From Eledone cirrhosa (taxonomy: Eukaryota): a stretch of DNA of 64,000 nucleotides. The notes beneath the pieces are model-generated. The model saw only the letters and a list, made by a program, of their open reading frames with translations, ran no database searches and was not told where the DNA came from. Within the stretch, counting starts at the first letter, position 1; every line of letters starts with the position of its first letter. Both the position numbers and the translations under genes were made by a program. The stretch spans positions 1,116,001 to 1,180,000 of the forward strand of contig OZ024762.1 in NCBI GenBank assembly GCA_964016885.1. Direction: 5' to 3'. Below, piece after piece: positions 10,203 through 33,981 of this stretch.

Positions 10203-10796
10203 ATGATGATGATGGCCGAAGAAGAATTTCTGAGAACATGGAGAGTGAAGAAAAAAGAGAAGATTGGTAAAAACGTTGTAAGCATGACCAAGGAACAATA
10301 CAACAAGTATTTGCTTATTCTGAAGGGAGCTTGGGAGAAAAAAACCGCTTGGACAGGGGAAGAATATAATGTCACTCGTCGTTTTGATTTGGTCGCTAAT
10401 GACCAAGGGACGAAGCTGATTAAGAAACGAAGACTGAGGGACTCGGACACAACTATTCGTCCTTATATTGCCGACGAGGATCTATTCCGTGCTTTGAAAG
10501 CTGTCCATTTGACCCATTCCCATGCTGGTATCAACCGTATGCAGAACATAACCCGTCAGTTGTATGCTAATGTGACGGCAGAGGCTATTAAAATCTATAT
10601 TTCTTTGTGTCCGAGGTGTAGCAGTCGTAGACATGGAAACTACAAGATCCATCCTGGTAGGAGCAGCTTCAATAAATGTTCGGTTAAATCGGTCAACACT
10701 TTACCGGTCAGACGAAACGACGAGAAATGCCAGACACAATCGGATTTGTTTATGCTGGGATTATTAAAAAATGAGGAAGATTTGGTGATGAACAAT
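10203..10796 (+). CDS. Variable exon A1: integrase-type HHCC zinc-binding domain (KRBA2/SCAND3/NOL4-like, Ginger/retroelement-integrase derived)
   Basis: Motif HLTHSHAGINRMQNITRQLYANVTAEAIKIYISLCPRC (H-x4-H...C-x2-C), preceded by MTKEQYNKYL and IADEDLFRALKAVH. No DDE core follows. Ends at phase-0 donor AAT|gtaagt (10796/10797). Confidence 0.8.
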
Positions 10797-10854
10797 GTAA
10801 GTTTATACGTATTTGTCTCCCTTGGACTGTCTTGTTTCTTATCGCTGACTCTTA

Positions 10855-11135
10855 AGCGTGGCTTAGTAGTAAGGGTGTTGGACTTCGACTATAATATCGT
10901 GGGTTCGATTCCTGGGCTGGGTCGTGTTGTGTTCTTCAGCAAAACACTTCATTTCATGTTGCTCCAGTATAATCAGTTGTAAAGGAGTACCAGCTGTAAT
11001 ATATGGGGATTTAACCCTGTGATGGACTGGCGTCCTGTCTAGGGGGAAGTCTTGTGCTCTCAGTTGCTTCACATCACGGAAACTTGGGTACGTACCGGCC
11101 TGGTGAGCTTCTGGCTTCGAGACAGACTTTAGACT
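10855..11135 (+). mobile_element. tRNA-derived SINE (related copies at about 20500-20780, 32115-32440, 57250-57480 minus, 61830-61990 minus)
   Basis: A box TGGCTTAGTAGT, B box GGTTCGATTCC, followed by a conserved body gtgttgtgttctt..gcaa.acact..atttca.gttgctccag. Confidence 0.8.
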
Positions 11136-11378
11136 TTATATATATAATCGGGGGAAACCACAGCAAGGTACTCAATACATTAGTAGAGTGTAAACATAAT
11201 GTTTAATATAGAAATGGCTTCTACAGGACTAGAACTGTTTCAAAAAAAATCATCAGAAAAGATTTCCTGATGATTTCTTTTGAATATATATATGTGCGTG
11301 TGAGTAATTGTTTACTAATGTAAAAATATATATATGATTAAAATCGATCTTCTATTTGGTATATATATCTCTTTGTAG

Positions 11379-11435
11379 CTTGAAACCCTTGTGAAAGTGG
11401 AACACACAGAAACTTCTGGTCTAACTGAACATCAG
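11379..11435 (+). CDS. Variable exon A2: 57-nt in-frame micro-exon (LETLVKVEHTETSGLTEHQ)
   Basis: ctttgtag| acceptor and CAG|gtaaac donor; phase 0/0, open, and containing a VKVE SUMO-consensus motif. Confidence 0.7.
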
Positions 11436-11914
11436 GTAAACATCTTCGCTCACTTATTCCTTCAAACACTCCCTCTAGTGGGTCCTGTCAGAAGCAATCA
11501 ACTCCAACTGATCCGGCTAGATCCCTCAAGTGTGACCAGCCAAGGCTCATGGATGTTATCCATCCATCTTGTTCGGGGTCTACCCCTGGGTCTCCTACCT
11601 GTTGATTTCGCCTGTAAAATCTATTTTGGTTTTTAATTCATCTTTTTTTAACTAAAAATTTATTTAACGTTTGTTTGTGAGGTGGGAGTAATAATTAGTT
11701 TTAAAAAACTCCACAATAATAATGGTAAATTTGTACGGGTTTTGTGGGAGGAGGTTATCAAAATTTCATTTCATTTTCAACGTATGATGGGTGTAAATTG
11801 TAAAAGTTGCTGCTGTTATAGTTAGTATATAAAAACACGTGTATTCGTTGAGGAGTGATTAACATGTTTGGTAAAACTGGAGAATCGCGGCGGCACAGTT
11901 AAAATTATATAGGG

Positions 11915-12230
11915 AAATAATAATTGTTTGTACTTTCGGCACAAGGCCAGCAATTATCTCAGTGTATTACTGGTTCTTTATCGACCCTTAAGGATGAAAG
12001 GCAAAGTTAACCTCGGCAGGATTTGAACTCAGAATAATAATGATTTCTAGTATAGGCACAAGGCCAGTTATTTGGGGGAAGGGGAAAGTCGATAAAATCG
12101 ACTCCAGTGTATTATTGGTACTTTATTTTGTCGACGCTAACCGGCGGAATTTGAACTCAGACTGTAAAGAGCCGTAACTCTATGCTGCAAAGCATGTTAT
12201 CCGACGCTCTACCGATTATATTGCCAATCC
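11915..12230 (-). mobile_element. Second tRNA-derived SINE family (gagttcaaat.ccgccgagg.taactttgcctttcatcc...gtcgataaaataaagtaccag); many copies, e.g. 28690-29190, 48510-48690, 54655-54840, 62030-62400
   Basis: Repeated dispersed sequence with B-box GAGTTCAAATCC and an (ATT)n tail. Confidence 0.75.
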
Positions 12231-12259
12231 GTCCTAAATATCGTAAATATTGACTTTTC

Positions 12260-12552
12260 TGAATTACCGGAACATAAATTTAGTTTTTACTCCGCTCACA
12301 TTTCCTATTTTTATTGTTTTAAACTTCCTCGTGTGACAGAACATATATGGAGAGCCGGCGGTACCTTTATGGCAAACCCCTCCCATCCTTAGGGCGCATT
12401 TCTATAATTAAATTAAATATATTGAATATATAACAATTTCCTCAGCGATGAATAATCACTAAATATTTTTTCCGTGTAGCAGCGTTATGGAAATATCCAA
12501 AGTGGTGGAGAGGGTTGTATGGTGTTATGACCTGTTACATGATTTGGCGTGG
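12260..12552 (+). promoter_or_regulatory. Candidate promoter and non-coding first exon for the FLYWCH variable exon
   Basis: ETS-like ACCGGAAC at 12266, unique sequence, strong donor GG|gtgagt at 12552/12553, and an acceptor ttatag| at 13256, 13 nt before the FLYWCH ATG. The start coordinate is approximate. Confidence 0.4.
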
Positions 12553-13269
12553 GTGAGTGTGTATCGTGTTGTGGAAAATGCAGGCTCAGTAAATATTCTT
12601 AGTGTGGTCAAGAAACTAGATTTGTCAGTTTGACAAACTTTAAGTTGAAATAACTTACATAGAAATCGAATTGTGATCAAAGCATAGGAAATAAGAAAAA
12701 AAAAGCTATAAAACTTAAGTTTCGTTCCGTTTTGTTCAATCTAAGTTTTATGATCTAGTTACAAATTAATACAACTGTACTATTTGTTGTGGTTATATAA
12801 CTTAAGGTTAAAAATCAGCGTGTTAAAGTATTAATAAATTTATACTGGCCATTTGTATTTGTTGTTTAAGAGATAGAAAATTAAATTTTATAGTTTGTAA
12901 TGTATCGGGCTGAATTTAGTTGGTAAAAATAGATTCTTTCTCTCCCAATGTGAATGTTTTAAAAGATTGTCGTTTCGCCTGTCGTGTTTCGCCTTGTCCT
13001 AATTTTGCCTTAATTCGCCTTCAACTTTCCTATTTATTGAGTACCTGTCTGATACACCGGTTTTAAACATACAAAACAGAGCTATACATAGCTATATATC
13101 TGTATATAGTTATAAATATATCACATCTATTTATATATATATATAATTATCTATCTATATAATATATATATATATATATAATATATCTATATATATATAT
13201 ACATACACACAGTCGGTTTATCTAGAGTTCAGTAGAAGTATTTGTATTTGTTATAGGGCAATTGTTACT

Positions 13270-13845
13270 ATGGCGAACGATCCGTTTCTTAATAATGTTG
13301 ACGATGATTTTAAACTAAATAAAAAAAGCCAGGCATTGAAACCGAACCAACCCGAGTATGAACTGATATTAACGACTAGAGGCGGCCAACTTTTGGCCTT
13401 AAATGGTTATTTATTTCGACTTAACTATAAACGTAAAGACAGAATTTACTGGAAATGCAGAACGTTGGGTTGTCTCTCGAGTGCGATTATGTCTAGCGAA
13501 AAAAAACTAATTTCGTTTAGGGAAAACCACAACCACAACAACGATAGGTCTTCGATACGTAACAGGTCGACTTATAGAACTTCAAAGCGAATATCATCAT
13601 CTAGGCCGACGAAACGAGCACCTAAGATCTCAACGGTTGAAGGGTTTCTCTCAAAATTTCCACAGGGTGACCCACAAAATATTCATGCTATCCTACCGTC
13701 GGAACATACCATCAAGACAGAGATTTTCGCAGCTGGTATAAACTGTGCTTATGAATCTCTGGCCTCGTCTTATTTATCTGGAATTCCCTGGGATGCAGCA
13801 GCACCCCAACAAATTGCGACCATAACTGATATCAAGTTTGGCAAG
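13270..13845 (+). CDS. Variable exon B: FLYWCH-type zinc finger (Mutator/MULE-related)
   Basis: TTRGGQLLALNGYLFRLNYKRKDRIYWKCRTLGCLSSAIMSSEKKLISFRENHNH has the L/Y-F/W-x-C/C/H-x-H pattern. Ends at phase-0 donor AAG|gtatgt (13845/13846). Confidence 0.85.
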
Positions 13846-14719
13846 GTATGTCTAAACCATTTATCAGAAAGAGGGGCCCCACTCCCCTTTATGGTGGTAC
13901 CATTGTTGTTGTCTCATGTTTTTGTTTTTTGTAAATATTTTAATGTTTCACTTGTAGAATTCGGTGCTTTGCAGGTGAAAGTTGTTTTTTTTTAAATCGC
14001 CAAAGATTGTTTTTATTCAAATGAGAAAGTTTTTGTTAACTAATGATACACGGATTTGACATCCTTAAATAATTTATATATATATATATATATATAAAAG
14101 ATCTATATTTTAACTTCGATTAATTTCCTATTTCAAAACAGTTCGATGTCTGTACCTTTCAACATTATAACTTGCAGAAGATTTCACATTAATGTTAACA
14201 CGAATGTAGAAAATATGGGATTTTCGTGTAAGGTGTGTGTATTGTTTTATAAAGTACCAGTAATACACTGGAGTCAATTTAATTGACTTTCCCCTACACA
14301 AAAAATTGTTGGCTTTGTGCCTAAATCAGAAACAATTATTATTATTATTATTATATTTTCATTGTTAAATTAGTCTTGCCATTGTGCACTTTTACTCGAC
14401 CTTATTGTAAACCCCCACTGTCCCTGTCTTTGTATTGTCCCCTACATGTCGGCCCTTGTGGCTAATAAATGAAATCATTATTATTATTATTATTATTTCT
14501 GAGACTGTGGGGTTAAGGAGTAACCACGTGTTCAGTCCCACTGAGTGGCACCTTGGGCAAGTTCCTTTCATTTATAGCTTTGGGTGAACGGATCAAACAA
14601 CTGCTGAAAAGGGTAAACAAAAAAACATCCAGAAATAAACAAACCTCTATGTGGTTGATTGACCTGCTAAAAATAGCTGCCAAATGTTTATATTTACCTA
14701 AAAAAAAAAAACCTTCCAT

Positions 14720-15197
14720 CATAATTTTATTTAAGGATCTATGTTAAGTTATGTTCCAAACAGCAGTCTAAAAATGAGAAAGTTAATTATATTTACTAAA
14801 TCCTTCCAAATTCTTGATTATTTTTCAAAATTATTCAAAAATTTTAAGAAAGTCTTTCATTAGAAATATGGTAACGAAAGGGTTAGTGTTTATATTTAAA
14901 ATCATGGTTTTATATAAGAACTTTTCTTAAGTTATGTTCCAAACTACTAAATCCTTTCAAATTCTTCCTCTATTTTCAAAAATTATTTGGAAATTTTAAA
15001 GCAGTTTTTCATTAAGAATATGGTAAAGAAAATTTATATTTATTTAAAAAGCACCATTAAATTATGTTCCAAACACCAACTAAAAACGAGAAAGTTAATT
15101 ATATTTAATAAATCCTTCCAAAATTCTTGATTATTTCCAAAATTATTTGAAAATTATAAAAAGTCTCTCATTAGAAATATGGTAACGAAAGGTTAAA
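14720..15197. repeat. About three diverged tandem copies of an AT-rich dispersed repeat
   Basis: ttatgttccaaac...aaatccttccaaattcttg...aatatggtaacgaaagg recurs three times. Confidence 0.6.
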
Positions 15198-16251
15198 CCT
15201 GAGAAAGTTAAGGAGAACGATAAAAAACCAGCCCAGCATTTAAAGGTGTGTGGCATTGCTATAAAGTTATAAGGTTTCTACCAAGGTGGCCGTTTATATA
15301 TAGTAACTGCTGTTCTATTAAGAAACAGTAGACGGCATTATAGAGCAATTTAAAGGCCGAGAGAGAAATATACATGTGTGTGTCTGTTTAGCTATCTAGT
15401 GTCCGTGTGTCCGTCTCCTTTTTATATATTTTCTCTCTAAATAGATGTGTACTAGCGGAATGGCCCGGCGTTGCTCGGGATTCTAAACATAGATTGGCAT
15501 GTTTATTCCTCTTTTCTGAAACATTACAGAGAAGTACGGAATACTTCGGCCTGGGGATGGTGTCTACATTTTGTGCTTACAAAAAAAATTTGTTGTAGAT
15601 TACCAGGGGTTTAACTTAATTGGGTGCCTGAGAGTAAAATGTTCAACCCACGAAAGCCAAGATGATAGGGTTAAGTAAAAAGGCATTCGACAAACCGAAC
15701 ATGTATTTGTTGTGCTATGGTACAATGAAAGCAATAGTTACAGAGCAGTAAGCATGTCGGACTGCAGTGGTGGAGAGCATGAAGGAATTTAGTTGGATAC
15801 TTTTAAGGTTACAGGCCCTAATGCAACCAAAATGCTAAACAATGCGGTTCCCGGGCAAAAATTTGAAATCCTTTTCAGTCAAGAAAATTTGTGAAACATA
15901 AGTAATCCATATGCAAAGTTTTTAAAAAATCGGTTGGGTACTTCTCGAGTTACAGGCCCTAATGCAACCAAAATGCTTAAAAAAAATTGGCTTTTCGCCT
16001 AATATATGGTTTCGATCATACTGTGAACACACTGAGTTCTAACTACAATATAGACCCTACTGCGAAAGGTAAACCACATTGAATATATATATATATATAT
16101 ACATATATATATACATACATATAGGAAAAAGTATGACCCCTTTTTCCTATTTCCAACTCTACTACCCTAAGTATTGAGTACTCTGGTGTGTTATGGTCCA
16201 TCTGGTTCCTTACCACAATTCCTTTGTTATACATATATATATATATATGTA

Positions 16252-16292
<41 letters not shown>

Positions 16293-16381
16293 TACGGTTC
16301 TGTTCAAATCATTTATTCGCTTACAATTGTTTCTTCCAAACCAAGGTTTGGAGTCTTCGGAGCAATTTTTTCAATGATTAT

Positions 16382-16880
16382 TTACATACATGACCTCCTT
16401 TTCAACACAAGAGACATACAGAAACATATGTATATATTGATGCACAGTGGGTTGACATCCATTATAATATTTAAGCATGGCAGTTTACATTCAAAGATTA
16501 AAGTCATATTAAAATGGCTGCGACTGTGGCTCCCGAGACCAGTTTTGCTCAAGTACATCTTTCCACACTCAGGGCACACCAATTCAATGGAGACGCTGAG
16601 CATTTCGAGAGATACACCGGGGCATTGCTTACACACATCCCGTTTGATCTTCTCGTGCTTTATGCATCTGTTCTCAAAATTATGGACCCCATCATTCACC
16701 ATTCCCCGCCAAGTTTCTCTTTCAAGAGCTTCTATCTCCCACTCAGTCATCATCAAACCACTTTTTTTTACACAATCCTTGAATCGGAGCCTTGGCTTGT
16801 GAGGTGGTCCCTTACCCTCACAAAGTCCGCCATACAAAAGTTGTTTTGGGAGTCGATCATCCTCCATTCTGCAGAGGTGT
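16382..16880 (-). mobile_element. 3' fragment of an RTE-clade LINE ORF with C-terminal C2H2 finger
   Basis: RMEDDRLPKQLLYG...GPPHKPRLRFKDCVKK...WE..A..R..WR...CPECGKMYLSKTGLGSHSRSH. Confidence 0.8.
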
Positions 16881-16914
16881 CCGGTTCAACACCCTTGGTG
16901 GATGATACTCTCAA

Positions 16915-16944
<30 letters not shown>

Positions 16945-16945
<1 letters not shown>

Positions 16946-18283
16946 CATCATCATCATCATCATCATCAGGTTTAGCGTCCGTGTTCCACGTTTGCATGGG
17001 TTTGGACGGGGGTAGTCCCACTTGAGGCAAGAGTGATTGTCTTGCTCGCATAGGACTGTCTGGCGGGTTTTCTACAGCTGGATGCCCTTCCTAACACCAA
17101 CCACATTTACAGTGTGGGGCTGGGAGGTTTTTACCGTGTTGCCTACACGGCCACATTACAGCGTGGACTGTGTGTTTTTTGTCGTGACACCTACACGATC
17201 TCATTTGTTTCGGCCTGGATGTTGTGGGACCAACATAACTTTACATAGAAGGGGGCGGTGTGGATGGGGTGGAGGTGGTGGGACGGGGGTGTGTTTTGAT
17301 AGAGATGCCTACTGACTGTAGTAGGTTTTTACTTTGTATTTAGGTAAGGCGGGTCTTCTCTATTACTGAGTACCGCCAAAGGTCTCGGTCCAGTGACATT
17401 GTCTTGGAGAGGTGTAAGCGTGTGAGGTCGGAATTTATCAGCTCGTCCCATGTTTTTCTGGGTCTGCCTACTCCGTGGCTACCGTCTATCTTTATTGCCC
17501 TGCACTTTGTTATACAGCTGTCGTCTTTCATGCGCATCACGTGACCCTACCAACGTAGCCTTCTCTCGAGTAAACAACATCTGATCCCTCTTATTTCTAA
17601 TTTTTTTTTTCCTTAGTTCGTTTATGCTTTGCCGTTCACGTATATTACTATTGCACATCCAGCGGAGCATGCAAGCTTCGTTCCTCTCTAGTCTGCGTAT
17701 ATCCTCTGCACACAATGCCCAGGTCTCACTGCCATGCAGCATTGCTGTTCGTATGCAGGCATCGTATAACCTGCCTTTCATTTTTAGGGAGAACCCTCTA
17801 GCAGCTAATAGTGGTATAAGCTCTCTGAACTTTTTCCATCCAGTTCTGACTCTAGCTACTGTACTTTCAGAGCACCCTCCCCCACTGCTGATTTTGTCAC
17901 CCAGATAACGGAAGCTGTCCACTATTTCTATAGAACCCTCTGCGCAGTTGAAGGAGCTAGTATTTTGTGGGCACTTGCTGCTACTTATTGCACCAGAGCA
18001 CCGGCCACATGTAAAATCTATGTTCTTAGTTAGCTTACCTGTGATCCCACTACATCTTTTATGCACCCATACTTTGCATTTGGGACATAAAATGGAGTTT
18101 CTACCTACGCCTTTCCTACACATTGAGCATGGCCATTTCCCAGATGGGACCGCCGCCTTATTTTCTTTCCTACAAACTAGAACCTTAGTCTTAGCCAGGT
18201 TAATTTTAAGGCCTTTTGATTCTAGGCCGTGCTTCCATGTTTGGAATTTCTTTTCTAGTTCGGTCATTGATTCAGCTATGAGC
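16945..18283 (-). mobile_element. 5'-truncated RTE-like LINE (RT C-terminus with Cys-rich insert, 3' UTR and (ATG)n tail)
   Basis: [12 protein letters not shown]...[31 protein letters not shown]...[11 protein letters not shown]...KGRLYDACIRTAMLHGSETW. Frameshift at the poly-T near 17600, then GRPRKTWDE. (CAT)n at 16945-16968. Confidence 0.9.
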
Positions 18284-18342
18284 TATATATATATATATAT
18301 ACACATATATATATATATATATACACATATATATATATATAT

Positions 18343-18381
<39 letters not shown>

Positions 18382-18388
18382 TATATAT

Positions 18389-18460
<72 letters not shown>

Positions 18461-18520
18461 GTATATATATAGATATAAATATACATTTAACATGGAAGAT
18501 AGACGTTAAACGATGATGAC

Positions 18521-18593
<73 letters not shown>

Positions 18594-18889
18594 AAAGAAA
18601 AGAGTCATGACCCCGACGGCTGAGCTCCGCCTGTTTCAACAGCCAGATCCGAACTATATAATATATATATATATATATATCAATGAAAAATTCGAGGCCA
18701 TATTGATTTGGTTCAGGTTTATTTAAAATCTGTTATATATTTCCCTAGTCGTTGAGCTCTTTCTCTTAACTACTTCACAACCGACAGACCATTATATAGT
18801 CCACACATCCTTATTTAGTTAACCTCTTACTATAAATATAGTAATAGTAATAAATGTGAAGACTAAAATCCGAAGAGAGCTCAATAAGG

Positions 18890-18931
<42 letters not shown>

Positions 18932-19010
18932 TATAAAAACTGTAGACCAAATATTTAAAATAACAGATTAAAGTTTAAGCAAAGAATCGCTGCTTTCACC
19001 CTTAATGGGA

Positions 19011-19049
<39 letters not shown>

Positions 19050-19087
19050 TTGCAAAGATTTTGATAGAAATCATGTGTTGAAACAAA

Positions 19088-19287
19088 TATTGTTATATCT
19101 GGGCGGTCACAATGTTATAATATTGCCAGAAATATATAATAAAACACACTCTGATTGGCAGCTAAATTAACTAGAGGGATATAAAATATACAGGAGTGAA
19201 AACCGACCCAAACCAAACAGTGACTGTGTTTTATTATATATTTCTGGTAATATTATAACAATATGACCCTCCCCAAATATAACAATA
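19088..19287. mobile_element. Palindromic MITE-like element
   Basis: Arms tattgttatat...ccagaaatatataataaaacac and gtgttttattatatatttctgg...atataacaata are reverse complements. Confidence 0.6.
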
Positions 19288-19572
19288 GATATATATGTAT
19301 GTAAAAGGTGTAACTATATATATATATATAATGGAGGTGAGGTAAGGAACCAGATGGACCATAACGCACCAGAGTACTCAATACTTAGGGTAGTAGAGTG
19401 GGTAATAGGAAAATGTTTGACCCCCGACAGCAGAGCTCAAGCCATTTCGACGGCTATTTCAGTCCAGAAATGGCCTAAGCTCTGCTGTCGGGGTCAAACA
19501 TTTTCCTATATATAAATATATATATACCAAGATAATAATAAATGATGGAAACTATATTTATAAAACCATATT

Positions 19573-19637
19573 TATTTTATTATATATATTTCAAGGGCGA
19601 CCAAGCAAAACTTGGTGCGCTTTCATCAGATAAAATA
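19573..19637 (-). ncRNA. Minimal type I hammerhead ribozyme motif (degenerate paralogue at 5503-5559, minus)
   Basis: Minus strand TATTTTAT-CTGATGA-AAGCGCACCAAG/TTTTG/CTTGGTCGCCCTT-GAAA-TATATA-TA-ATAAAATA, with an 8-bp perfect stem I. Confidence 0.7.
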
Positions 19638-19943
19638 CAAAATTTGTTTAATAAACAATGACATACACATGGAAATCACACCTTAACGGTCTGAAGATTC
19701 GCTTCCCTGGCTTACTCACTTTGTTCGCTTGTCCTGCATCTCATACACATTGAGGACACTGTCCCCCTCACTACTGGCTTAGAATTCTCAGAACTAATCA
19801 CATATTTCTCCTCTACGATTAGTTAATATACATACTTTTTGATATAATATATCTATATATATATATATATATATTTATTTATTTAGGTCTCTGATTTTCA
19901 GCCCCATGGATTTTGTCTATTATATTTCTTTGTTATATTTCGA

Positions 19944-20001
19944 ATACCTGATGATGTCACCGGATTCATACTGTACCCGGTCACTGAAATGATCATAGTA
20001 T
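19944..20001 (+). ncRNA. Minimal hammerhead ribozyme motif, probably impaired
   Basis: ATAC-CTGATGA-TGTcACCGG...CCGGTcACT-GAAA-TGATCA-TA-GTAT; the base of stem II is a U-U mismatch. Confidence 0.55.
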
Positions 20002-20045
20002 AACAAACCTTTTAAGGAATTACACCAGTCCAGCCTCCTGTTATT

Positions 20046-20083
<38 letters not shown>

Positions 20084-20360
20084 GATAGATAGAGAGAGAG
20101 AGAGAGAGAGATGTTTACATATCTCTCTACCTACTCTGAGTTCTCTCAACATTAGTGGTTTCCCTCGTCTCAGTATCACAGATATTCTATATATATAATA
20201 TATTATAATATATGTTGTTCTGAGCCACTTTCACATTTGCCAACTAACCAATGGTGTAAGACTAACCTTAAAAAAAAAAAGTAGGCCACTGTAGTTATAA
20301 ATTAATCAGTTTTTTTAATCTAATACACTCATTATTTAACATAGATATTTTATTTTCTTG

Positions 20361-20391
<31 letters not shown>

Positions 20392-22961
20392 AACAAATAA
20401 GAGTTTCTTTAGTCCATCCCGTTATTGAACAAAAAAAATATATATATATTTACACATATACGTATATATATATAAATTTACGTATGTTATATGTGAAGCC
20501 ACATGGCCTGATCGTTAGGATGGTTGCCGTACGATCGTAATGTCGTCGGTTCAATTCCTGGGCAGGCTGCTGTGTTGTGTTCTCGAGCCAAACACTTTAT
20601 TTCACGATGCTTCAGTACACTCAGCTGTGAGTGAGTACCAGCTGTAGCTGGGGAGTTAACCCTGCGATAGACCGGCGTCCTGTCCAGGGAGAGTATTGTT
20701 GTACTCTCAGTCGCTTAACGCCATGGAAACCGGGATAAGCACCGGCCTGATGAGCCTTCGGCTTGGAAGACTTTAACTTTTTCATATACATAATAATACT
20801 TCATGTTTGAGTGCATATATATGACTTTAAATCCTTAAAATAGACAGTTGTGTCAAAGGCATGACAACCTCTCCTGTTCATTCAGTGGAGTATCGAGCGT
20901 ACATGAAACCAGATGCCTGGCCTGCTTGGGAGATCAGTACTGACTTGGTCTATGTAAACCTCTCCAATCCTTGCTAGCAGATGTTAAAACGACAACGATG
21001 ATGATGATGATGATGAAAGACCTGCGTTCTAACCCTACACTTAAGTAAATAGTTATTTCTCCTAAATTGCTGATACATTTAATCCTTTTATGTAATTTTG
21101 TTGCTGCAGATAGTCACTACTTCTCCGAATTGAGAGATCACAGCTCTGATACTATGGACATGTGGTGAGAATGTCTCTGGGGAGAATCGCTGGACAGATT
21201 TTATGTGAAAAACCAACCGGCAGTAAACTCAGGGGTAGACCCTGAGCAAGATGGTTGGATAACATCCATCAGCTTGGCTGGTCATGCTTGGGGATGCAGG
21301 CAGATCCGTTGGAGACAGTTGCTTCTGACACGACCCACTAGAAGGAATAAATGGGCAAAAAAGATGTATGTGTATGTATATATATATAGATATATAGGAA
21401 CAAGTAGGACCCCGATGGCTGAGCTCAAGCCGTTTCGACAGCTAATTCTGGACTCAGCCGTCGGGGATCCTACTTGTTCCTATTACCCACTCTACTACCC
21501 TAAGTATTGAGTACTTTGGTGCATTATGGTCCATCTGGTTCCTTACCACTTTTCCTTCGTTATATATATATATATATAAAAGGAATAAACTGTAGTGTGC
21601 GGGAGAGAAGACTGCGTTGGTATGGACATGTGATGTGCATGAAAGATGTCAGCTGGGTGAAGAAGTGCCAAGAAATCCCGGTGGAAGGAAGACATAGTAG
21701 AGGAAGACCATGAAAAACATGGGCGGAGGTGATGAGAGCAGACCTCAGATCGCTGAGGCTCACAGAGGAGATGACGAAGGACCGTGACAAATGGAGAGAT
21801 GCTGTGCTGAATAGGACCCGTCCCACCCTTGCAAGCAGGGAAAAACGGACGTAAAATGATGATGATGGACTGGCGTCCTATCCAGGGGAAGTCTTGTACT
21901 TTCAGTCACTTCATGCCCCGGCCTGATGAGCTTCAGGGCTTGAGTCAGACTTTAAACTTGTAGATATATATGTGTGTAGTTTCTGTATACATTTGTGATC
22001 CTGTCTCTATTTTTGTACTCCTGAAGAAGGGCTGTAGCCTGACATGTCGCACTTTCTTTCCCCTTTAAAGTGTGAAACTAAGACTTTTTGTACCTCTGTT
22101 TCTTGTTTCCTTGAACTATATATATGTATATATATATATCCAGTCCAGCGTCCTGTTATTTTATAATAATTAACTCCGTACTCGCACCACCAACTACACT
22201 AACGAAGACGAGTGAGTTGCATTACGTTGAGTGCTCTCCATAATATTACATCCAGGTTGACCATACTGAGTGACCAGTTCTATCCAGTGGTCAACCAACA
22301 AACCTAAATATATATAGTTCTGTAGGAGCAAGATGCTCACCTGATCTAACACTGCCCATAACAGAACAACTCATCTACCTCTGCTAGATCAGAGCTCTTT
22401 TCCTATTTCCCACTCTACTACCCTAAGTATTGAGTACTCTGGTGCGTTATGGTCCACCTGCTTCCTTACCATACTTTCTTTGTTATATATATATATATAT
22501 ATGTGTGTGTGTCTGTGTCTGTATTTGTTGCGTGTGTGCCTATTTGTGCTGTCTATATGATCGTCAGTAAGCATCCCTGTATACCTGTGTGTTGGTTAGT
22601 CTCTAGTCTATACCATATATACAACATTTGAATTGGGATGCCCTCAGATGAGATTTTCGTTTTGTCTGACCAGGGCTGGAGATGGGTCTATAACATTAAT
22701 ATGGACTCGGAGCCAGCCATCCGTGAAACATGTGTAACTCAGTTTAATCAATGACAACCTTAATGTGAAACCTCATTTTGTTCTTAATATATATCTAATA
22801 TGTATGCATACATGTGTGCGTATATATATATATACGCATACATACATATATGTAAATATATACATGTGTGTGTATATATATACACTCACTCACATACACA
22901 TAAATATATAACATACACACACATATGCACATATGTATATATATATATGTATATATATATG

Positions 22962-22997
<36 letters not shown>

Positions 22998-23181
22998 TGT
23001 ATATATGTATGTATGGATATATGTATGGATGTATGGATATATATATATATATGTATATATATGTATTTGTATATATATGTAAATGATGATGTATATATAT
23101 ATGTATACATATATATATATATATAAATGAAAAGTATAGAAATTATTGTAGCAAGAAGCCAACAGTATTCCATAATATATA

Positions 23182-23957: not shown

Positions 23958-24601
23958 GTGTGTGCATAATTTCTCTGTCCCCCCTCTCTCTCTATATATA
24001 TGTGTGTGTGTATTTATATATATATATATATAAATACACATACAGGATGTCCCCCAAAAATATATACACACTTCCATAACCTTCTAATCAAAGTGTGTAT
24101 ATATTTTTGGGGACACCCTGTGTGTGTGTATATATATATATATATATTTATATGCATATATATAATTATATGCATATATATATATATATTAAACATAATA
24201 CGTACATGCACACACGCATTCTTTTATTGCTTACAGTCATTAGCCCGTGATCATGATGGGGCACCGTCTTTAAGGCATTCATTTAATCTCTCATATCGAA
24301 CCTGGATAATAAAATAATAATTTATAGTAATTTATAAAATATATATTTTTTAAAAAATCATCAATGAAATATATCGTTTAATTTTGTAGATATTGCTATT
24401 TGTATGAAAAAACAACAACAATCTAGGCTACAGTTAGTAGTTAAAGTTGTAGGCCTATATAAGATATAGAACAGCAGTAGCACCTAGAAAACATAGTTAT
24501 TTTCTTTTAAGAAGGAACTAATTCACCCCCTATCTTTCTCCACCCTTCTCTATGTCGACTAAACTAAAACTAAAACGACTTATGTTGCTATCTGAAGTTG
24601 G

Positions 24602-24936
24602 GCCGCCATTGGCGGAATGATCTTATTTATTTTATTTTTTTGTGTGAGTGAAGCGGTCAACCACATATATGGCTATAGTGATGTGTATGATAGACTGAGA
24701 GAGATAGTGGGAGCGGATGCTATCGACTATTAATTTTACTTCTATGGCTTTCATTAACAAACTCTAACTTGTCTGTTGCCAGAAATAAATCTCTATTTAA
24801 AAATTTGTAAACGGTGGGGAAAAAATCGTTGCAACTTGTCTAAAAAGCTGTAATATTTTGTTCGGCTTCTATAGTGTAGGGGCACTATGTCTTCTCGTAG
24901 TACTGTTCACTACGCATCTATGTTGCCGTGACGTCA
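24602..24936 (+). promoter_or_regulatory. Candidate promoter/5' region of the DUF3504 variable exon
   Basis: YY1-like GCCGCCATT at 24602 and a palindromic CRE TGACGTCA at 24929-24936, 40 nt before the ATG. In-frame stops lie upstream of the ORF. Confidence 0.45.
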
Positions 24937-24975
24937 CGCTACTAGAGCGTAGTGCCGTGCGGAAGAAGGTTACTA

Positions 24976-26286
24976 ATGGCTTCCAATCCACTAGATTCGT
25001 CGTCACCGACTCCTCCGCCGTGCACTTCTACTGCAAACTCTCTGCTTGCTAGCACTAACATTCCTCTACAATCGGCTGGAATTCTCCACGAAGATGTCCC
25101 CATATTGGTCATGCCCCCTCCATCGAAAGAACACCAGCAATATGACAGCAAGAAAACGAAAGAGGCCACCAAATATAGCGCGAAAATCTTCCGTGATTTC
25201 TGTCATAGCCGTGGCATCAATACTGCCATTGAAGATATGACCAAGAGTGACTTGGACGAACTGCTCTCTGACTTTTACATCAATGTCCGTACACAAGGCG
25301 GTCAGTTTTATAGTTTTTCATCGCTAGTTGCGCTTCGTCATGGATTAAACCGTTACCTGAAAACTGTGAACATCGTCAACGACCCGGCATTTCGTAAATC
25401 AAACATGTCTTTTAAAGTAGCTTTGAAACGGCTGAAGGAAGCTGGGAAAGGGTCGATCGAACACAAAGAGCCGATCAGTCAGACTGACATGGCTACGCTG
25501 TACTCACATAGTCAGGTTTTTAACCCTAACACACCGGAAGGCCTTCTAAATAAGGTCTGGTTCGAGATAACATTTTATTTCTTTCGTCGGGGACAGGAGA
25601 ACCAACGTTACCTCACCCCACACCATTTTGGTTTTGGCACAGACGAATACGGTCGAAAATATGTTTACAAACGGAAATCGTTGTCTCAGTTCACTAACGG
25701 GTGTAACATTGATTCGAACAGCTCCTCTTTGTCTCCAGACTCCAGTCGAAGTGCGAGGATGTATGCCACTGGAAATGCCGTGTGTCCAGTAGCCACATTC
25801 GAGCGATACCTTCGTAAGAGAAACCCACACGAGTTAGCTCTATTCCAGCATCCTCGGACCACATCTTTCCAGGACTCCATCTGGTATAATGCATCTCCCC
25901 TGGGGAAAGAAGCTTTGTCTACTATGATGAAAAGAATAGCACTGACGGCGAAACTCTCTCGTGTTTATACAAACCACTGCATCCGTGCTACTGCCAAGTT
26001 CGTCCTGTTTCAGGTGTTCGATGCATTTCAGTTCGATCCACAACAAGGCACCAGCAGTTCTCTAACCACACCATCTCAATCGATGGCTTTGCCAGGTATC
26101 AGTTCGATATCTGGTCTAAACACCCTCTCGTCCCACGATATACAACAGGCCGCCCACGATACAAATGTGACCCCGTTAAGTTACAACCCTCATCCGTCTG
26201 GCCTCCGTGTCTCTATGGTACAGTCCGAAAGTGACAATACATTCGCCCACCTGCCTAATTTAAGTGAAATAGCTCTAAACAGACAG
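24976..26286 (+). CDS. Variable exon C: Crypton-derived DUF3504 / tyrosine-recombinase-like domain (KCTD1/ZMYM/QRICH1/KIAA1958-like), catalytically incomplete
   Basis: LDELLSDFYINVRTQGGQFYSFSSLVALRHGLNRYL...TPEGLLNKVWF...FFRRGQENQRYL...CPVATFERYLRKR...WYNASPLGKEALSTMMK...YTNHCIRATA, then an S/T/P-rich linker. Phase-0 donor CAG|gtaagt (26286/26287). Confidence 0.88.
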
Positions 26287-27465: not shown

Positions 27466-27514
<49 letters not shown>

Positions 27515-27660
27515 GTATATATATATGTATATATATATATATAATGTATGTATATATATATATGTATATATATATATATAATGTATGTATATATATATAT
27601 GTATATATATATATATAATGTATATATATATATATAATGTATATATATATATATACCCAC
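27140..27660. repeat. Long compound (TA)n/(TG)n microsatellite, representative of many in the window
   Basis: Pure TA/TG dinucleotide sequence; source of the YIYI/CVCV pseudo-ORFs. Confidence 0.95.
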
Positions 27661-27762
27661 CAGAATATTACTAAACCGTCAAATTACTATTATATATATT
27701 TTTGCTCTATTTCCTTCCTATGATACAAGACTATAATACATTATAATTCTATAACCTATAAT

Positions 27763-27806
<44 letters not shown>

Positions 27807-27845
27807 CTGCTGGGTAGTAACGAGATTTTGGGCTTATTTTGTCAT

Positions 27846-27882
<37 letters not shown>

Positions 27883-28464
27883 ATGAATGTCTATATTTAT
27901 TAATATTTTGAAGTAATATATATATATATATATGTGTGTGTATATATATATATGGTTTTAGAAAACGATCCTAAAATAGCAATATTTCAAGGTATATATA
28001 GATGTGTGTGTATGTGTTTATATATATATATATATGCATGCCTGTATATATATATATATATATGTCTGTCTGTCCCAAATATATTTTATCATCCTGTATT
28101 TGAAATGGAAAATAAACATTATTTAGGGTCCTTTGTGTATGTATGGTGGAGTTGGGGGGTGATAGGTTGTGTATGTATGGTGGAGGTGGGGGGTGATAGG
28201 GTTTAGGATTAGGGATTCAATTTGAAATGCAAGGAAGGGAAAATAACCAAGAAGCTACTTCACTCTGAAGACCATCCTGTCGTCTCTCTCTGTTGTATAT
28301 CTAGGAAGAAATACGCACACACACCTTTAAGGTGTGTGTGTGTATTTATACATATATATATATAGTGTACCCCAAAAAAATTGTATACACACTTCAACAG
28401 CATTCTAATATTGCCTGTACAGGTAATCACTGTGTATACATTTTTGGGGGACACCCCGTGTGTT

Positions 28465-28498
<34 letters not shown>

Positions 28499-29771
28499 CA
28501 CACACATACACATATATATATACAGGGTGTCCCAACAAATATATACACACTTCAGCATTCTAATGAATATTGCCTGTACTGGTAATCACAGTATGTATAC
28601 ATTTTTGGGGGACACCCTGTATATATATAGTTAACTGATACTTTCACTGGACTTAGCTCCCTCTTAACAGTCACCCTTATGAAAGTTAAGGGCAGTGGAT
28701 TGGTAGAGCATCGGACACCTTGCTCCATGGCATAGAGTTATGTCCCTTTATGTTCTGAGTTCAAATCCCGCCGAGGTTAACTTTACCTTTCATCCTTACG
28801 GGGTCGATAAAATAAAGTACCAGTCATACATTGGGGTCAATTTAATTGACTTTCCCCTCCCCCAAAACTGTTGACCCTGTGCCTATAATAGAAAATTATT
28901 ATTAATCCTTTCATCCTTAAGGGTCGATAAAATAAAGTACCAGTCATACACTGGGGTCGATCTAATCGACTTTCTCCTCTCCCCTCAAATAAAGAAAAAA
29001 AACTGTTGGCCTTGTGGTTAAATCTGAAACTTATTATTATTGTCGGACGCCATGCTTTGCAGCATAGAGTCACGGCCCTTTACGCTGTAAGTTCAAATCC
29101 CGCCGAGGTTAACTTTACCTTTCATCCTTACGGGGTCGACAAAATAAAGTACCAGTAATGTACTGAGGTAATTACTGGCCTTGTGTAAGTGATATGGTTG
29201 TGTTGGTTTATTTGTAGTGTTGTATTTTGACATTTCTAGTTTGTTTACATTTTATGTTGTGTGGGGTGGGGGGGGCTAACTTTGAAATAACAGCCCCCCT
29301 CCCCCCTCTTGCCGACGTCCACCTTTCGTCATTACCTTATTAATAATGTAGATTTAATGAAATTTAGCACACATACCTTTTCTATAATGGAGATTACCAT
29401 TGTGTTGGTGAAATTGAAAATACTTCCATGATTGTGTCTATATCAAATATAGACACAATCGATATATAGGAAATTACAAAATAGGAGGAAATAATTCCAA
29501 CTGCAGTTTCACCCATCCGTGTGCAACCATTTCTGTACTATAAAAATGCATCATCACTGTGAGTTTGATATGGCTTATCAAGAGACCCCTCAGTAAAAGG
29601 ATTGTTTCTTATCCCTCTGTGTGTGTGTGTGTATATATATTTATATATATAGGAACGAGTAGGACCCCGACGGCTGGGGTCCTACTCGTTCCTATTACCC
29701 ACTCTACTACCCTAAATATTGAGTACTTTGGTGCGTTATGGTCCACCTGGTTCCTTACCACATTTCCTTCG

Positions 29772-29814
<43 letters not shown>

Positions 29815-30156
29815 AGAGGGGGGGGGGGTAAAAACTCGACTGGCATCCTGATGGTTTCAGCTATGTATTCAACAAGCCTTTATATATACATATACAAGGT
29901 GTCTCCAGAGTGTACACACACTTTGATTGCCTGTACAGGTAATATATATTAGAATGCACAGCCTTTCCCCAAAATAAAAGGATCAGACATAATTCAATCA
30001 TATATATATATATGATGATGATGATATAGAGTTGTTTCCCCTGTATTAGCAGGGGTTACATTGCTAGAGCACCCGCGAAGAGTGAAAAACCACGAATATT
30101 GGACGTGGTCCATAAAAATCCTATAAACGTTCAAATATAATACAAAAAGAGGAAGT

Positions 30157-30383
30157 GTTTCCACTAACAATAATTAGTTAGACACTAAGGAAAATTCCAC
30201 GAATAACTGAGACGGCAAATGCCGGGTGTACACTATATCATCATCATCATCATCATCATCGTTTAACGTCCATCTTCCACGCTGGACGTTAAACGATGAT
30301 GATATAGTGTACACCCGGCATTTGCGGTCTCGGTTATTCGTGGAATTTTCCTTAGAGTCTAACTAATTATTGTTAGTGGAAAC
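30157..30383. repeat. Fold-back hairpin A (arms about 105-115 bp)
   Basis: gtttccactaac...cgtttaacgtcc / short loop / ggacgttaaacg...gttagtggaaac. Confidence 0.9.
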
Positions 30384-30453
30384 CACACATATATATATAT
30401 ATATATGTGTATATATATATATGTGTGTATATATATATATATATGTATGTGTG

Positions 30454-30691
30454 TGTAATCTGAGTTTTTCGAATATTAATAATAACATTCAATTTGTTTG
30501 CAATTATGCAAACAAGCCTCAATTTTATAGCCATGTCAGTAGGATGAACACTTCATTCTTGCTCTTGTGTTGGCATGCGAACAGAGCAAGAATGAAGTGT
30601 TCATTCTACTGACATGGCTATAAAATTGAAGCTTGTTTGCATAATTGCAAACGAATCGAATGTTATTAATATTCGAAAAACTCAGATTACA
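30454..30691. repeat. Fold-back hairpin B (arms about 110 bp)
   Basis: tgtaatctgagtttttcgaat...cattcttgctct / loop / agagcaagaatg...attcgaaaaactcagattaca. Confidence 0.9.
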
Positions 30692-30724
30692 TTTATTGTA
30701 TTCAGCCATGTAGAGTGAAATTTT

Positions 30725-30770
<46 letters not shown>

Positions 30771-31295
30771 TTCAACCTATTTGTATCTATTGTTGTGGTA
30801 TCAGTATAGCCACTGACTTTGGTCACTTTTCTTGCTGTCACGCTTTTTTAACTTTTGTGTTTACTCTGGATGATAATGTATTAACTTGTTGCTCCACTGA
30901 GTGCTTTGTGATTGCCTCAAACGATTCGATTAGTATCTTCTATATTGCGGCTACAACTTCGATTTATATCCAATATTAAATATATATATAGTGGGCCGAA
31001 ACATCCATGACCCGTAGTAAACTACAAAGGGAGACTGTCCATCTCTTGTTTGTGTCACCTTACCAACACTTGTTATCAGTAACCACACATCCCTTCCTCC
31101 CAATCCATATATATATATATATATATATGGTGGTGATGGTGAGGGTAGCGTCAATAATGGCGAATAAGAATATTTTAATGATGAATTTGTTTTTATATAG
31201 TTCAATGATGAACTAAATCGATTATAGAATTCTCTAGAATTCTTCCAAAAAACTTAACAGATTTGTTGACTGTTTGCTTTAATATTTTCTCAAAG

Positions 31296-31444
31296 GAGGC
31301 AATGGAAGTTCAGTCAGCCGTCGCTGCAGCTACCAGTAATATCATGGGCCAAGCAGCTGAAGTTGAGACTTATGAACCAGAGCCAGTTCATACCATCCAG
31401 AATCCCAAGATTAGAATAAACCAGGATAAAGATTTGTCTGTCAG
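31296..31444 (+). CDS. BTB module, constant exon 1 (EAMEVQSAVAAATSNIMG...DKDLSV)
   Basis: Acceptor ttttctcaaag|GAG is phase 0 (the NAGNAG alternative at 31299 is also phase 0). In-frame ATG at 31302. Phase-2 donor AG|gtaaga. Confidence 0.8.
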
Positions 31445-32530
31445 GTAAGAATGTTATCTATATGCCATATCAGATGGCCGTGTTTTACTCATATAGAAAA
31501 GTTTCTAGCTTGGTTTCTATGGCTGCATGCCCTTCCTGATGCTAACCACATTTATAGTGAGTACTGGGTGCTTTTTGTCATGTCACAAACACAAACCCTT
31601 TACAGTGTGGACTGGGAGCTTTTTATCATGTCACCAAACGACTATAATATATATCATATGTCCACTTATTCCTGAGAGGGTCAGTTCTCTAGCGCCCTTT
31701 TCAGTGGGTCCTGTCAGAAGCAACCATTTCCAACTGATCTGGCTGGATCCCCAACCGAGATCAACTGAGCTCATGGAGGTTATCCAACTATCTTGCTCTG
31801 GGTCTCCTGCCAGTTGATTTTGCCCATAAAATCTGTCCAGCAATTCTTTCTTGAGACATTCTAACCACATGTCCATAGTATCGGAGCTGTGATTTCTTAA
31901 TTCAGAGAAGTAGCAGCTCTACCAGGAGTGACTCTCTCATCTCTGAGCTAAGCATTCAATCGATTAATGTTAGTCCAAAGACCCTTCAGAGAATCACATT
32001 TCAGCCCCTTGTATTTACAATCGTATTCTTTCGGTCATTACCCAAGTTTCATGACCATAGGGAAGGGTTGGCACAAATACCATATTGAAGATATGTGCAT
32101 TATGTTGTTAAGACGCATGGCTTAGTGGTTACAGAGTTAAGCTTACAATTGTGAGGTTGTGAGTTTGATTCTCGGACCGGGCTTTCCGTTGTCGTCTTGG
32201 GCAAGACACTCTATTTCACGTTGCTCCAGTTCACTCAGCTGTAGTGTTACAATGTCACTGGTGCCAAGCTGTATCGGCCATTGCCTCTCCCTTGGACAAC
32301 ATCGGTGGCGTGGAGAGGGGGAGACTGGTATGCCTGGGTGACTGCTGGTCTTCCACAAACAACCTTGCCTGAACTTGGGCTTCGGAGAGGAAGGTTCTAG
32401 GTCCAAATCCCTAGGTTATTTGTGACTGAAGGGGGTCTTTTGTGTATAAATATTTGTGTGTGTCTGTGTGTCTTTCATTGGATTTCTAGAGTTTTATTTA
32501 TTACTAATTGATATTTATTTTCATTAACAG

Positions 32531-32681
32531 TTTCTCTGCATCATCGCGGCCTGCAACTGTCTTCAAAAAAACCTATGTTGACCCCGAACATGCAGATGGT
32601 ATGATGAAGTCACTGGCAAGTTTATGGAGGAAGAGACGGCTGTGTGATGCTAAGATTTGTAGTGGAAACAAGAATGTCACT
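32531..32681 (+). CDS. BTB module, constant exon 2 (start of BTB/POZ: HADGMMKSLASLWRKRRLCDAKICSG)
   Basis: ttaacag|T phase-2 acceptor matches the previous donor; phase-0 donor ACT|gtaagg. Confidence 0.88.
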
Positions 32682-33036
32682 GTAAGGATTGAGATTTTAC
32701 AAGTTTTACTTTTAAATTTATTGTTAAATTACAGCCTCTTACAAGTTTTAGTGATTACATACTGGCCATGCTGGAGCACCACACTCTCTGTCAATAGACT
32801 GAGGCCATGTTGGGGCACCACACTCTCTTACTGGTTTCAGTCATTAGACTCTGGCCATGCTGGAGCACCACGCTCTCTTACTGGTTTCAGTCATTAGACT
32901 CTGACCATGCTGGGGCACTATTTTCAATCATTGTTCTATAGCCAGGTAATATTTCTGGCAATTTTCTCTCAATTTATTTCCCAGAACAATTATTTACAAT
33001 ATTTCTAATGTTTTCTTCTATAAATTTCCATTTCAG

Positions 33037-33981
33037 TTACATCGTTTGGTTCTGTTTGCTGCTAGTCCTCACTTGATGGAGAAGAACATCACTGATGGAG
33101 CTGACTTGGAGGTGAATCTTCCACCAGGGATTAGTGAAGATGGACTGAAAATATTTGTCAGCTTTCTCTACGACGGGGTCCTCAATCTTAACGAGCACCT
33201 CTACAAGGATGTCGAACGAATATCGAATCTTTTAAAAGTCGATAAAATTCAGAAACATTGTCGTGAGTTTGCTGCCAGTTTTAACGAACACAAACAAATG
33301 ACGAGCTCCTCTACGACGCTGACACCACGCCGACGAGATTCCCTTCCCAAGTCACACAAACAAAACAATCGGCAAACGGTCGTTCTGACGTTGAGCGACG
33401 ATTCCAATCCTGCAGACATTAGCTTCGACAGCCATGAACAGGACGTGGGCTTGTCCCATTCTCAACTGGAAGAAGTTCATAATTCTCTGCTCGACGAAAG
33501 ACTCCAAACATTGAATGAACAGCACAACTATTTAACTTCTCACCAAAATCAGTTCCCTTCCACTTCACAAGCCTCTTCGATGTCTCTGCAGAGCGGCAGT
33601 GGCTCAGTGAACGCCATTTCTTCTGAATGTGGTATCAAAACTGAACCGATAGAGATCTTAGACGACGACATCGCTGATTACAACTTAGCTCAGGAGGACA
33701 TTAAACAGTGTAAGCCTTCTATGAATCAGAGTAGCGGCAAAAGTTACTGCGAGGACAGTTCCAACTCTGAAGCTCATAGACGTTCATCACAAGGACATAT
33801 CTCAAGTAAACTCTCACGAACTTACATGACACCTAGTAAATGTGAATCAGGCATAGAGTTATCCCAAATAGAAAGTATATCGACTTGTGCCGGCACTGGC
33901 GCGTCCCCTTATCCTGTCAGTTTAGTAGCTTCTTCCGGAGAGACGTTCCCTCTATATACTTTATCATCCAACCAATCCTGA
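33037..33981 (+). CDS. BTB module, terminal exon (rest of BTB/POZ plus Ser-rich tail; no zinc fingers)
   Basis: tttcag|TTA CAT CGT gives LHRLVLFAASPHL...GLKIFVSFLYDGVLNL...ISNLLKVDKIQKHC. IKTEP SUMO motif; TGA at 33979-33981. Confidence 0.9.
   Translation, partial: LHRLVLFAASPHLMEKNITDGADLEVNLPPGISEDGLKIFVSFLYDGVLNLNEHLYKDVERISNLLKVDKIQKHCREFAASFNEHKQMTSSSTTLTPRRRDSLPKSHKQNNRQTVVLTLSDDSNPADISFDSHEQDVGLSHSQLEEVHNSLLDERLQTLNEQHNYLTSHQNQFPSTSQASSMSLQSGSGSVNAISSECGIKTEPIEILDDDIADYNLAQEDIKQCKPSMNQSSGKSYCEDSSNSEAHRRSSQGHISSKLSRTYMTPSKCESGIELSQIESISTCAGTGASPYPVSLVASSGETFPLYTLSSNQS

Follow-up and report, generated by a model that had tools for sequence, protein, structure and literature searches.

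Probable alternative N-terminal modules of transposon-derived families upstream of a constant BTB module at a locus of the octopod Eledone cirrhosa

A probable gene with alternative first coding exons

The window analysed here, a 64,000-nucleotide stretch of the 3.0-Gb genome of Eledone cirrhosa (assembly GCA_964016885.1, contig OZ024762.1, here C23, positions 1,116,001-1,180,000), contains a locus in which three protein-coding modules precede a constant module encoding a BTB domain, and which is probably one gene with alternative first coding exons. Its anatomy and splice phases, two of its joins in public gene models, and paralogous arrays elsewhere in the genome were observed directly. Transcription would start at or near one variable module, the donor of which would be spliced in cis over other modules to a shared acceptor at 31296, so that each product would carry a single N-terminal domain (H2C2/KRBA2-like, FLYWCH or DUF3504) in front of the BTB domain and tail that all of them share; most modules would have separate promoters. 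A reading of the same DNA from its letters alone (the sequence-only reading) had proposed such alternative N-terminal modules on one BTB, and the DUF3504 and H2C2 modules do join it at the predicted residue in two isoforms of an Octopus sinensis gene, but no joined FLYWCH protein was found.

All three modules belong to transposon-derived families, which that reading missed. FLYWCH, together with THAP, CENPB and psq, is counted as transposon-derived by Mukherjee and Moroz 2023 (PMC10027918), and DUF3504 as derived from Crypton tyrosine recombinases (PMC3212892). The gene family would have gathered transposon-derived DNA-binding exons upstream of a constant module, keeping those with a donor phase that fits the shared acceptor. 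The parts of the locus, in window coordinates, are:

10203-10796, plus strand: variable module 1, main exon; ATG at 10203, 198 codons, phase-0 donor after 10796.
11379-11435, plus strand: variable module 1, micro-exon; 57 nucleotides, AG/GT flanks, phase 0, VKxE motif.
13257-13845, plus strand: variable module 2, FLYWCH exon; ATG at 13270, 576 nucleotides, phase-0 donor after 13845.
24590-24975, plus strand: putative CpG-rich promoter and 5' leader preceding module 3, with motifs resembling CRE and YY1 sites.
24976-26286, plus strand: variable module 3, single-exon DUF3504; ATG at 24976, 1311 nucleotides, phase-0 donor after 26286.
31296-31444, plus strand: constant exon 1; shared phase-0 acceptor, phase-2 end; three different N-termini reach this residue in homologues.
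32531-32681, plus strand: constant exon 2; start of the BTB domain, phase-0 end; exon also present in the paralogue on contig C2.
33037-33981, plus strand: constant exon 3; remaining BTB, low-complexity region, IKTE motif, conserved C-terminal tail, stop.

The coordinates and phases given by the sequence-only reading for the three ATG-started modules (donors 11435, 13845 and 26286) and for the BTB module (acceptor 31296 in phase 0, internal phases 2 and 0, stop at 33981) hold, as does its observation that chaining modules 1 and 2 (11435 to 13257) fails, with 11 codons followed by a stop. The open frame that it noted upstream of the first ATG of the BTB module is present but spans two codons only, which makes it a weak argument alone.

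Module 1 totals 217 residues over its two exons. Its Pfam match to Integrase_H2C2 was weak (E 0.001; 19.6 bits, under the cut-off of 25.5), its Atlas neighbours were H2C2 clusters (0.91-0.92), and the UniRef name of its orthologue was KRBA2-like; from these matches we assign it to an H2C2 zinc-binding, KRBA2-like N-terminal region that lacks the integrase catalytic domain. The main exon was 80% identical to the N-terminus of the O. sinensis X2 isoform, which also holds a segment similar to the micro-exon just before the BTB module, and had one match in the genome. Module 2 matched FLYWCH (E 1e-11) and had orthologues in homologues P0029 and P0030; its AlphaFold model showed six strands at residues 30-87, the remainder, and the model overall, being of low confidence. 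An acceptor-like AG lies at 13257, 13 nucleotides 5' of the module 2 ATG, and this module may be preceded by a short non-coding exon.

Module 3 matched DUF3504 (E 5e-11). Its structure model (predicted local distance difference test, pLDDT, 77) resembles QRICH1 in a DNA-bound complex (9hjt; Foldseek 1.5e-7) and Cre (4e-6). Conservation among six DUF3504 paralogues stops just past an H-x-x-R motif, which suggests that the final catalytic segment has possibly been lost. A sequence search of solved structures returned 0 matches for modules 1 and 3. Upstream of module 3 there were 17 CpG in 400 nucleotides, and 24907-24987, in its leader, was conserved in the cuttlefish record P0007 (E 3e-8); of the three modules, this one looks most like a true first exon. 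The modules are predicted to bind DNA or chromatin.

The last constant exon shared 88% identity with a protein of Octopus vulgaris/sinensis and 77% with one of Argonauta, which marks the animal as an octopod. Pfam identified BTB in it (E 1.5e-5) and no DNA-binding family above cut-off, and the precomputed Pfam column of the full-length orthologue P0001 lists DUF3504 and BTB only, in agreement with the sequence-only reading that the BTB module has no DNA-binding domain of its own. Residues 85-199 of homologue P0028 align with the BTBs of gigaxonin, BACH1 and BCL6, solved relatives were led by gigaxonin, Miz1/BCL6 and BACH1, and the Atlas neighbours were ZBTB-named clusters; these alignments indicate a full ZBTB/KLHL-type BTB of the gigaxonin/BACH1/BCL6 kind with an N-terminal helix region. 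BTBs of this kind dimerise in known cases, and the constant module would do likewise.

Psi-K-x-E motifs, which we take to be SUMO-site consensus, occur near the ends of module 1 (11379-11435) and module 2 (13711-13722) and in the constant exon (33634-33660), where the acidic, hydrophobic stretch that follows is invariant across cephalopods. The last ~25 residues (33920-33981) are nearly invariant in octopods and decapods and are echoed in four paralogues; this tail is possibly a partner-binding motif.

Joins to the shared BTB residue

A query with the last constant exon, seeking longer proteins, matched 4 of 6,277 candidates, all of them DUF3504 plus BTB. The DUF3504-BTB join was present in XP_029650369.1 (O. 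sinensis, isoform X1), XP_014789876.1 (Octopus bimaculoides), GAB1609177.1 (Argonauta), CAE1277972.1 (Sepia) and Logan contigs, and, in our numbering of homologues, in P0001-P0005, P0007, P0008, P0015 and P0017. The junction, ...ALNRQ/EAMEVQ..., corresponds exactly to splicing of donor 26286 to acceptor 31296. The whole 862-residue protein was found on Logan contigs of 3-4.5 kb, with P0008 on 36 contigs; since these contigs lack introns and the gene has them, they most simply represent spliced RNA.

In a second isoform of the same O. sinensis gene (XP_029650370.1, X2, of LOC115223832), it is the module 1 orthologue that runs into this BTB residue, and X1 and X2 differ solely upstream of the residue coded at 31296. 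A third N-terminus, of 21 residues, reaches this residue in P0028, a cuttlefish-type Logan protein from one contig. The sequence-only reading had placed the acceptor at 31296 or 31299; homologues use the former and not the latter. Read-through forms (P0006, P0009-P0013 and P0029) diverge precisely at the donor.

For FLYWCH, the join to the BTB would follow from a conserved donor position and probable synteny. P0029 is similar to module 2 up to the donor and then diverges, and P0030 ends in a similar IKFxx/V. The source of P0030 (FLYWCH), P0013 (DUF3504) and P0020 (BTB) is in each case an ENA contig 221,079 bases long; this is probably a single contig, on which the three parts would be syntenic. 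One candidate for a FLYWCH-BTB join, P0043, was rejected: EAMEMQS follows its FLYWCH, the sequence beyond is unlike the constant exon, and the resemblance was taken as chance.

Paralogous arrays

Local profiles identified further arrays of domain exons upstream of related BTBs. As genome searches score the best candidates only, the counts from them are lower bounds; BTB paralogues were sought with two queries, which gave 4 and 20 matches. Five constant modules (in the window, on C2, two on C4 and on C11) share a Y/F-P-V/I-x-L-like C-terminal tail. The main paralogous features are:

C4:234,567,853-234,784,808, plus strand: large array, orthologous to LOC106877732 of O. bimaculoides; its constant BTB follows 22 domain exons, and shared exons, one in phase 1 and one in phase 0, are nested within it.
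C4:234,803,452-234,841,636, plus strand: second C4 array; four modules (Brinker/Tc5, FLYWCH, helix-turn-helix, CENPB), then BTB.
C11:580,396-761,085, plus strand: four FLYWCH (two weak) and two DUF3504 over 180 kb of repeats, then BTB.
L049:1823-2143, L049:3304-3633 and L049:5242-5490: split-THAP variable exons, with a shared exon near C4:234,758,190.
C2:363,431,139-363,442,572: closest paralogue, 68% in the BTB, with an AT-hook-like KRKRGRP stretch.

The first C4 array (within 234.57-234.78 Mb) comprises 12 THAP exons (one apparently broken), 4 CENPB, 3 psq and 3 DUF3504, and the BTB of the second is a duplicate, 84% identical to the first, with a partial copy of the first constant exon at 234,796,573. 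All module hits (35/35) and all BTB hits (4/4) lay on the plus strand, in 804 kb containing 10,336 open reading frames (5,075 plus, 5,261 minus); 28 of the 35 modules had seeded their own profiles, and therefore only seven hits and the empty minus strand are independent. A Pfam scan of 138 chosen open reading frames, nearly all of them taken from the gene strand, confirmed most array modules. In strand-blind searches of the genome, 8 of 9 DUF3504 matches, 10 of 18 THAP matches and 8 of 18 FLYWCH matches were followed, on their own strand, by a BTB of this kind. On these comparisons, the window locus is a small member of a cephalopod 'domain-first, BTB-last' gene family.

Several C4 THAP exons stop at the region of the last cysteine, and the shared exon supplies the final histidine segment, such that splicing is predicted to complete the THAP domain; a psq exon uses the same shared exon. 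An unplaced scaffold (C581:27,462-65,660) carries one FLYWCH and four THAP exons. These THAPs are the orthologues that the C4 array lacks, and they follow the order of O. bimaculoides wherever a position is available; as the C4 stretch holds an N gap and satellite at that place, the scaffold probably belongs there.

Upstream of the C2 BTB lies an unclassified multi-exon segment of short, helical-looking open reading frames, in which no Pfam match was found, and then more than 130 kb of one satellite. A BTB paralogue on C1 lacks the shared tail, and the 58 kb upstream of it contained no domain exon. Further BTB paralogues were seen at C4:285.94-286.08 Mb (six BTBs clustered at 285.95-286.08 Mb), C4:297.95-298.33 Mb, C10:2.71-2.73 Mb, C21:7.74-7.76 Mb, C7:11.26 Mb and C23:6.42-6.43 Mb, several of them closely preceded on their own strand by matches to FLYWCH, THAP or DUF3504.

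Donor phases and agreement with O. bimaculoides models

Across three regions, the best donor past the domain was in phase 0 in 32 of 34 modules compared to 53 of 144 control open reading frames (Fisher P = 3e-10), with approximate donor weights; 35 modules were tested, one of which had no GT, and the control was limited to scores ≥ 3. At that cut, 22 of 23 modules were in phase 0 (hand count). Of the two exceptions, one is a CENPB exon upstream of the shared exon with a phase-1 acceptor, where phase 1 fits, and the other is the broken THAP copy; modules preceding the phase-1 shared exon carry phase-1 donors. The four THAPs of scaffold C581 have three phase-1 ends and one phase-0 end, as the O. 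bimaculoides models require.

Supplementary Table 1 of PMC10027918 lists 16 distinct N-termini (THAP, CENPB, psq and FLYWCH) on one constant BTB part; 10 of the 16 entries are labelled LOC106877732, and all are gene models rather than reads. For 13 of the 16 we found an orthologue with a donor at the modelled join, nine in the C4 array (one using the second-ranked donor) and four on C581. The tables include other domain-first BTB genes, among them orthologues of the C11 and second C4 arrays, and all domain-first cases were from Octopus, among 22 of the 30 BTB mentions in these tables and rows from other look-ups. The window locus was not found in these tables, the cells of which are limited to 400 characters, so that a DUF3504 isoform could be missed.

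Weighing the alternatives

Several observations weigh against a single gene with alternative first exons. Besides the profile seeding and approximate donor weights given above, the joined RefSeq and GenBank entries are automated gene models, not reads; four sequencing runs over 10100-14000 read through the introns as genomic DNA with no exon joint, and had gaps over part of module 2, where they are uninformative. The O. vulgaris entry CAI9739955.1 is module 1 alone (224 residues), reading through its donor. The N-terminus of P0028 had no match in 264 kb around the window locus, and no joined FLYWCH-BTB protein of this locus was found among 544 candidates or among 148 phmmer hits (the top two and three others inspected). 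Moreover, an acceptor score ≥ 14 preceded the ATG in 8 of 31 modules compared to 13% of 799 control ATGs (P = 0.007), which fits a shared leader, and THAP and psq stand in one chain in the O. bimaculoides model XP_014782194, which shows that modules of the large locus are not strictly exclusive.

In one rival reading only two modules join the BTB, and FLYWCH belongs to a small gene of its own or to transcripts that mostly end by intronic polyadenylation; no joined FLYWCH protein was found, X1 and X2 are the only isoforms seen, and the supplement of PMC10027918 has no match to the window locus. We consider this unlikely, as the similarity of P0029 runs to the donor and stops there, P0030 ends in the same kind of motif, the FLYWCH donor scores 6.0 in phase 0, and FLYWCH-BTB models exist at paralogous loci (LOC106879774, XP_029634403). 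Mildly enriched acceptor scores before module ATGs, including the AG before the FLYWCH ATG, would instead favour a choice made by splicing, in which an upstream non-coding leader is joined to one of several mutually exclusive cassette exons, as in Dscam, or, as a variant, the parts are trans-spliced. A pyrimidine run and AG before the ATG in several O. bimaculoides cDNA starts, and the upstream exons of psq2, point the same way. However, CpG was also mildly enriched upstream of modules (median 11 vs 7 per 400 nucleotides, 31 vs 799 ATGs, P = 3e-4), the module 3 leader is conserved and CpG-rich with its CRE-like and YY1-like motifs, no good acceptor lies near the module 1 ATG, and the inspected O. 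bimaculoides cDNA starts have no common leader; overall, a choice by splicing appears quite improbable. Trans-splicing need not be invoked, since the 35 modules share one strand with the 4 BTB hits.

That the modules are merely neighbouring single-exon genes or transposon relics, with the joins produced by annotation or by rare read-through, appears very improbable. This account draws on the stand-alone model CAI9739955.1, on KOF74710, which shows gene predictors chaining such exons, and on the lack of an RNA joint in the four runs. Against it stand the same join in contigs across octopods and decapods, the strong phase bias that tracks the shared acceptor, the intact, conserved and near single-copy state of the modules, which are not repeats, and the module order conserved with O. 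bimaculoides. A single gene with alternative first coding exons remains the preferred reading.

Genomic surroundings

Further phase-0 variable exons in the flanks, raised by the sequence-only reading, were not seen among the listed open reading frames of at least 90 residues in 200 kb upstream, a scan that may miss short exons or those of unknown family, nor with local profiles across 264 kb around the locus. The intervals 14500-23500 and 27650-30600 are repeats and remnants of long interspersed nuclear elements (LINEs). Decayed LINE ends with zinc-finger-like matches lie between modules 2 and 3 (16382-16885 and 17479-18282, both minus strand); they do not belong to the gene. Downstream, a long exon of a RabGAP-TBC gene (44476-46986, minus strand; Pfam E 6e-35) is convergent with the BTB gene, and a 301-residue open frame with a WD40-like look (63096-63998, minus strand) presumably resembles UTP18. 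At 33-97 kb upstream of the window, exon fragments that by eye we take to be like PPP6R/SAPS (minus strand), RPB6 and MYCBP (plus strand) and UBE4A (minus strand) bound the variable region.

Implications

No published account of this architecture was found in a literature search, which did not reach subscription papers, and the isoforms are already present in automated annotation. The sequence-only reading knew of no description of the architecture; it missed a one-exon version, known from vertebrate KCTD1 isoform b (PMC3212892). A few loci may yield dozens of transcription factors, which would be an overlooked route to regulatory diversity in cephalopods. Protocadherin and zinc-finger expansions are known in this group. 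The constant module could serve as a landing pad that lends a dimerising and probably co-repressor-binding tail to any exon lying upstream, provided that its donor fits, and the family would be a natural test case for how transposon domains turn into transcription factors, mirroring mod(mdg4) in an independent lineage. The THAP, CENPB and psq factors of Octopus that were counted in print as separate could be reinterpreted as isoforms of one gene, and cephalopod data already in existence (RNA-seq, single-cell, long-read) would allow exon choice to be tested directly.

As all isoforms would carry the same BTB, mixed dimers between them are plausible; co-translational assembly can favour BTB homodimers (PMC11426971), which makes this step uncertain. 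A broader proposal, possible but one that we hold only tentatively, is that coleoids have a protocadherin-like transcription-factor system in which a family of BTB genes carries arrays of independently promoted first exons from many DNA-transposon families, the choice of promoter sets DNA-binding specificity in each cell, split THAP domains are completed by splicing, mixed dimers form, and most THAP and DUF3504 domains are isoforms of a few loci.

Comparison with known systems

Among the entries in Table 1 of Mukherjee and Moroz 2023 are isoforms of LOC106877732, the orthologue of the C4 locus, together with further domain-first BTB genes; that study counts THAP-, CENPB-, psq- and FLYWCH-BTB entries as separate factors and BTB as a transposon component. 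The words 'alternative' and 'isoform' have 0 occurrences in its main text.

As in Drosophila mod(mdg4) and lola, one locus with one BTB would give many isoforms with different DNA-binding-type domains, FLYWCH included (PMC11426971, PMC13490949). The BTB of those genes is N-terminal and TTK-type, with variable exons at the 3' side that are trans-spliced, whereas here the variable exons are 5' and come from at least six unrelated families. Here, unlike in mod(mdg4) and lola, all parts lie in order on one strand and the constant module runs to its stop codon without adding another domain. The FxLRWN motif described for TTK-type BTBs (PMC11426971) is absent from the aligned BTB. The window gene is thus mod(mdg4)/lola-like in output but inverted, and is not a member of that class.

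KCTD1 isoform b is the one-exon precedent, in which a single-exon Crypton-derived DUF3504 placed upstream provides a BTB gene with an alternative N-terminus; KIAA1958 carries a pair of alternative DUF3504 exons (PMC3212892). In KCTD1 a single exon was captured, whereas the loci described here have three to over twenty alternatives and a BTB like those of gigaxonin, BACH1 and BCL6. The BTB of KCTD1 is of the KCTD/T1 type, and no KCTD chain occurred among 45 solved-structure matches of the BTB here; one cuttlefish record is named KCTD1_15. The likeness is probably convergent.

Host-transposase fusions of the KRABINER type likewise splice transposon DNA-binding domains to a host effector domain; in them the host part, often KRAB, usually sits at the N-terminus, and splicing enters the transposase exon through an acceptor (bioRxiv 10.1101/2020.05.07.082677). 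Unlike in those fusions, the domain exon here comes first and exits by its donor, repeatedly at one gene.

In clustered protocadherins, UGT1A and chelicerate sDscam, a tandem row of variable 5' exons is joined by splicing to a constant 3' part; the variable exons descend by duplication from one ancestral exon and code for surface or enzyme domains. The loci described here resemble the protocadherin and UGT1 clusters in having coding exons in tandem at the 5' side, the donors of which match the shared acceptor in phase. Unlike in those systems and in sDscam, the variable exons are unrelated nuclear domains, and the large locus has nested shared exons; the variable exons are not paralogues of one another, with three unrelated Pfam families in the window and mixed families, including some paralogues, on C4.

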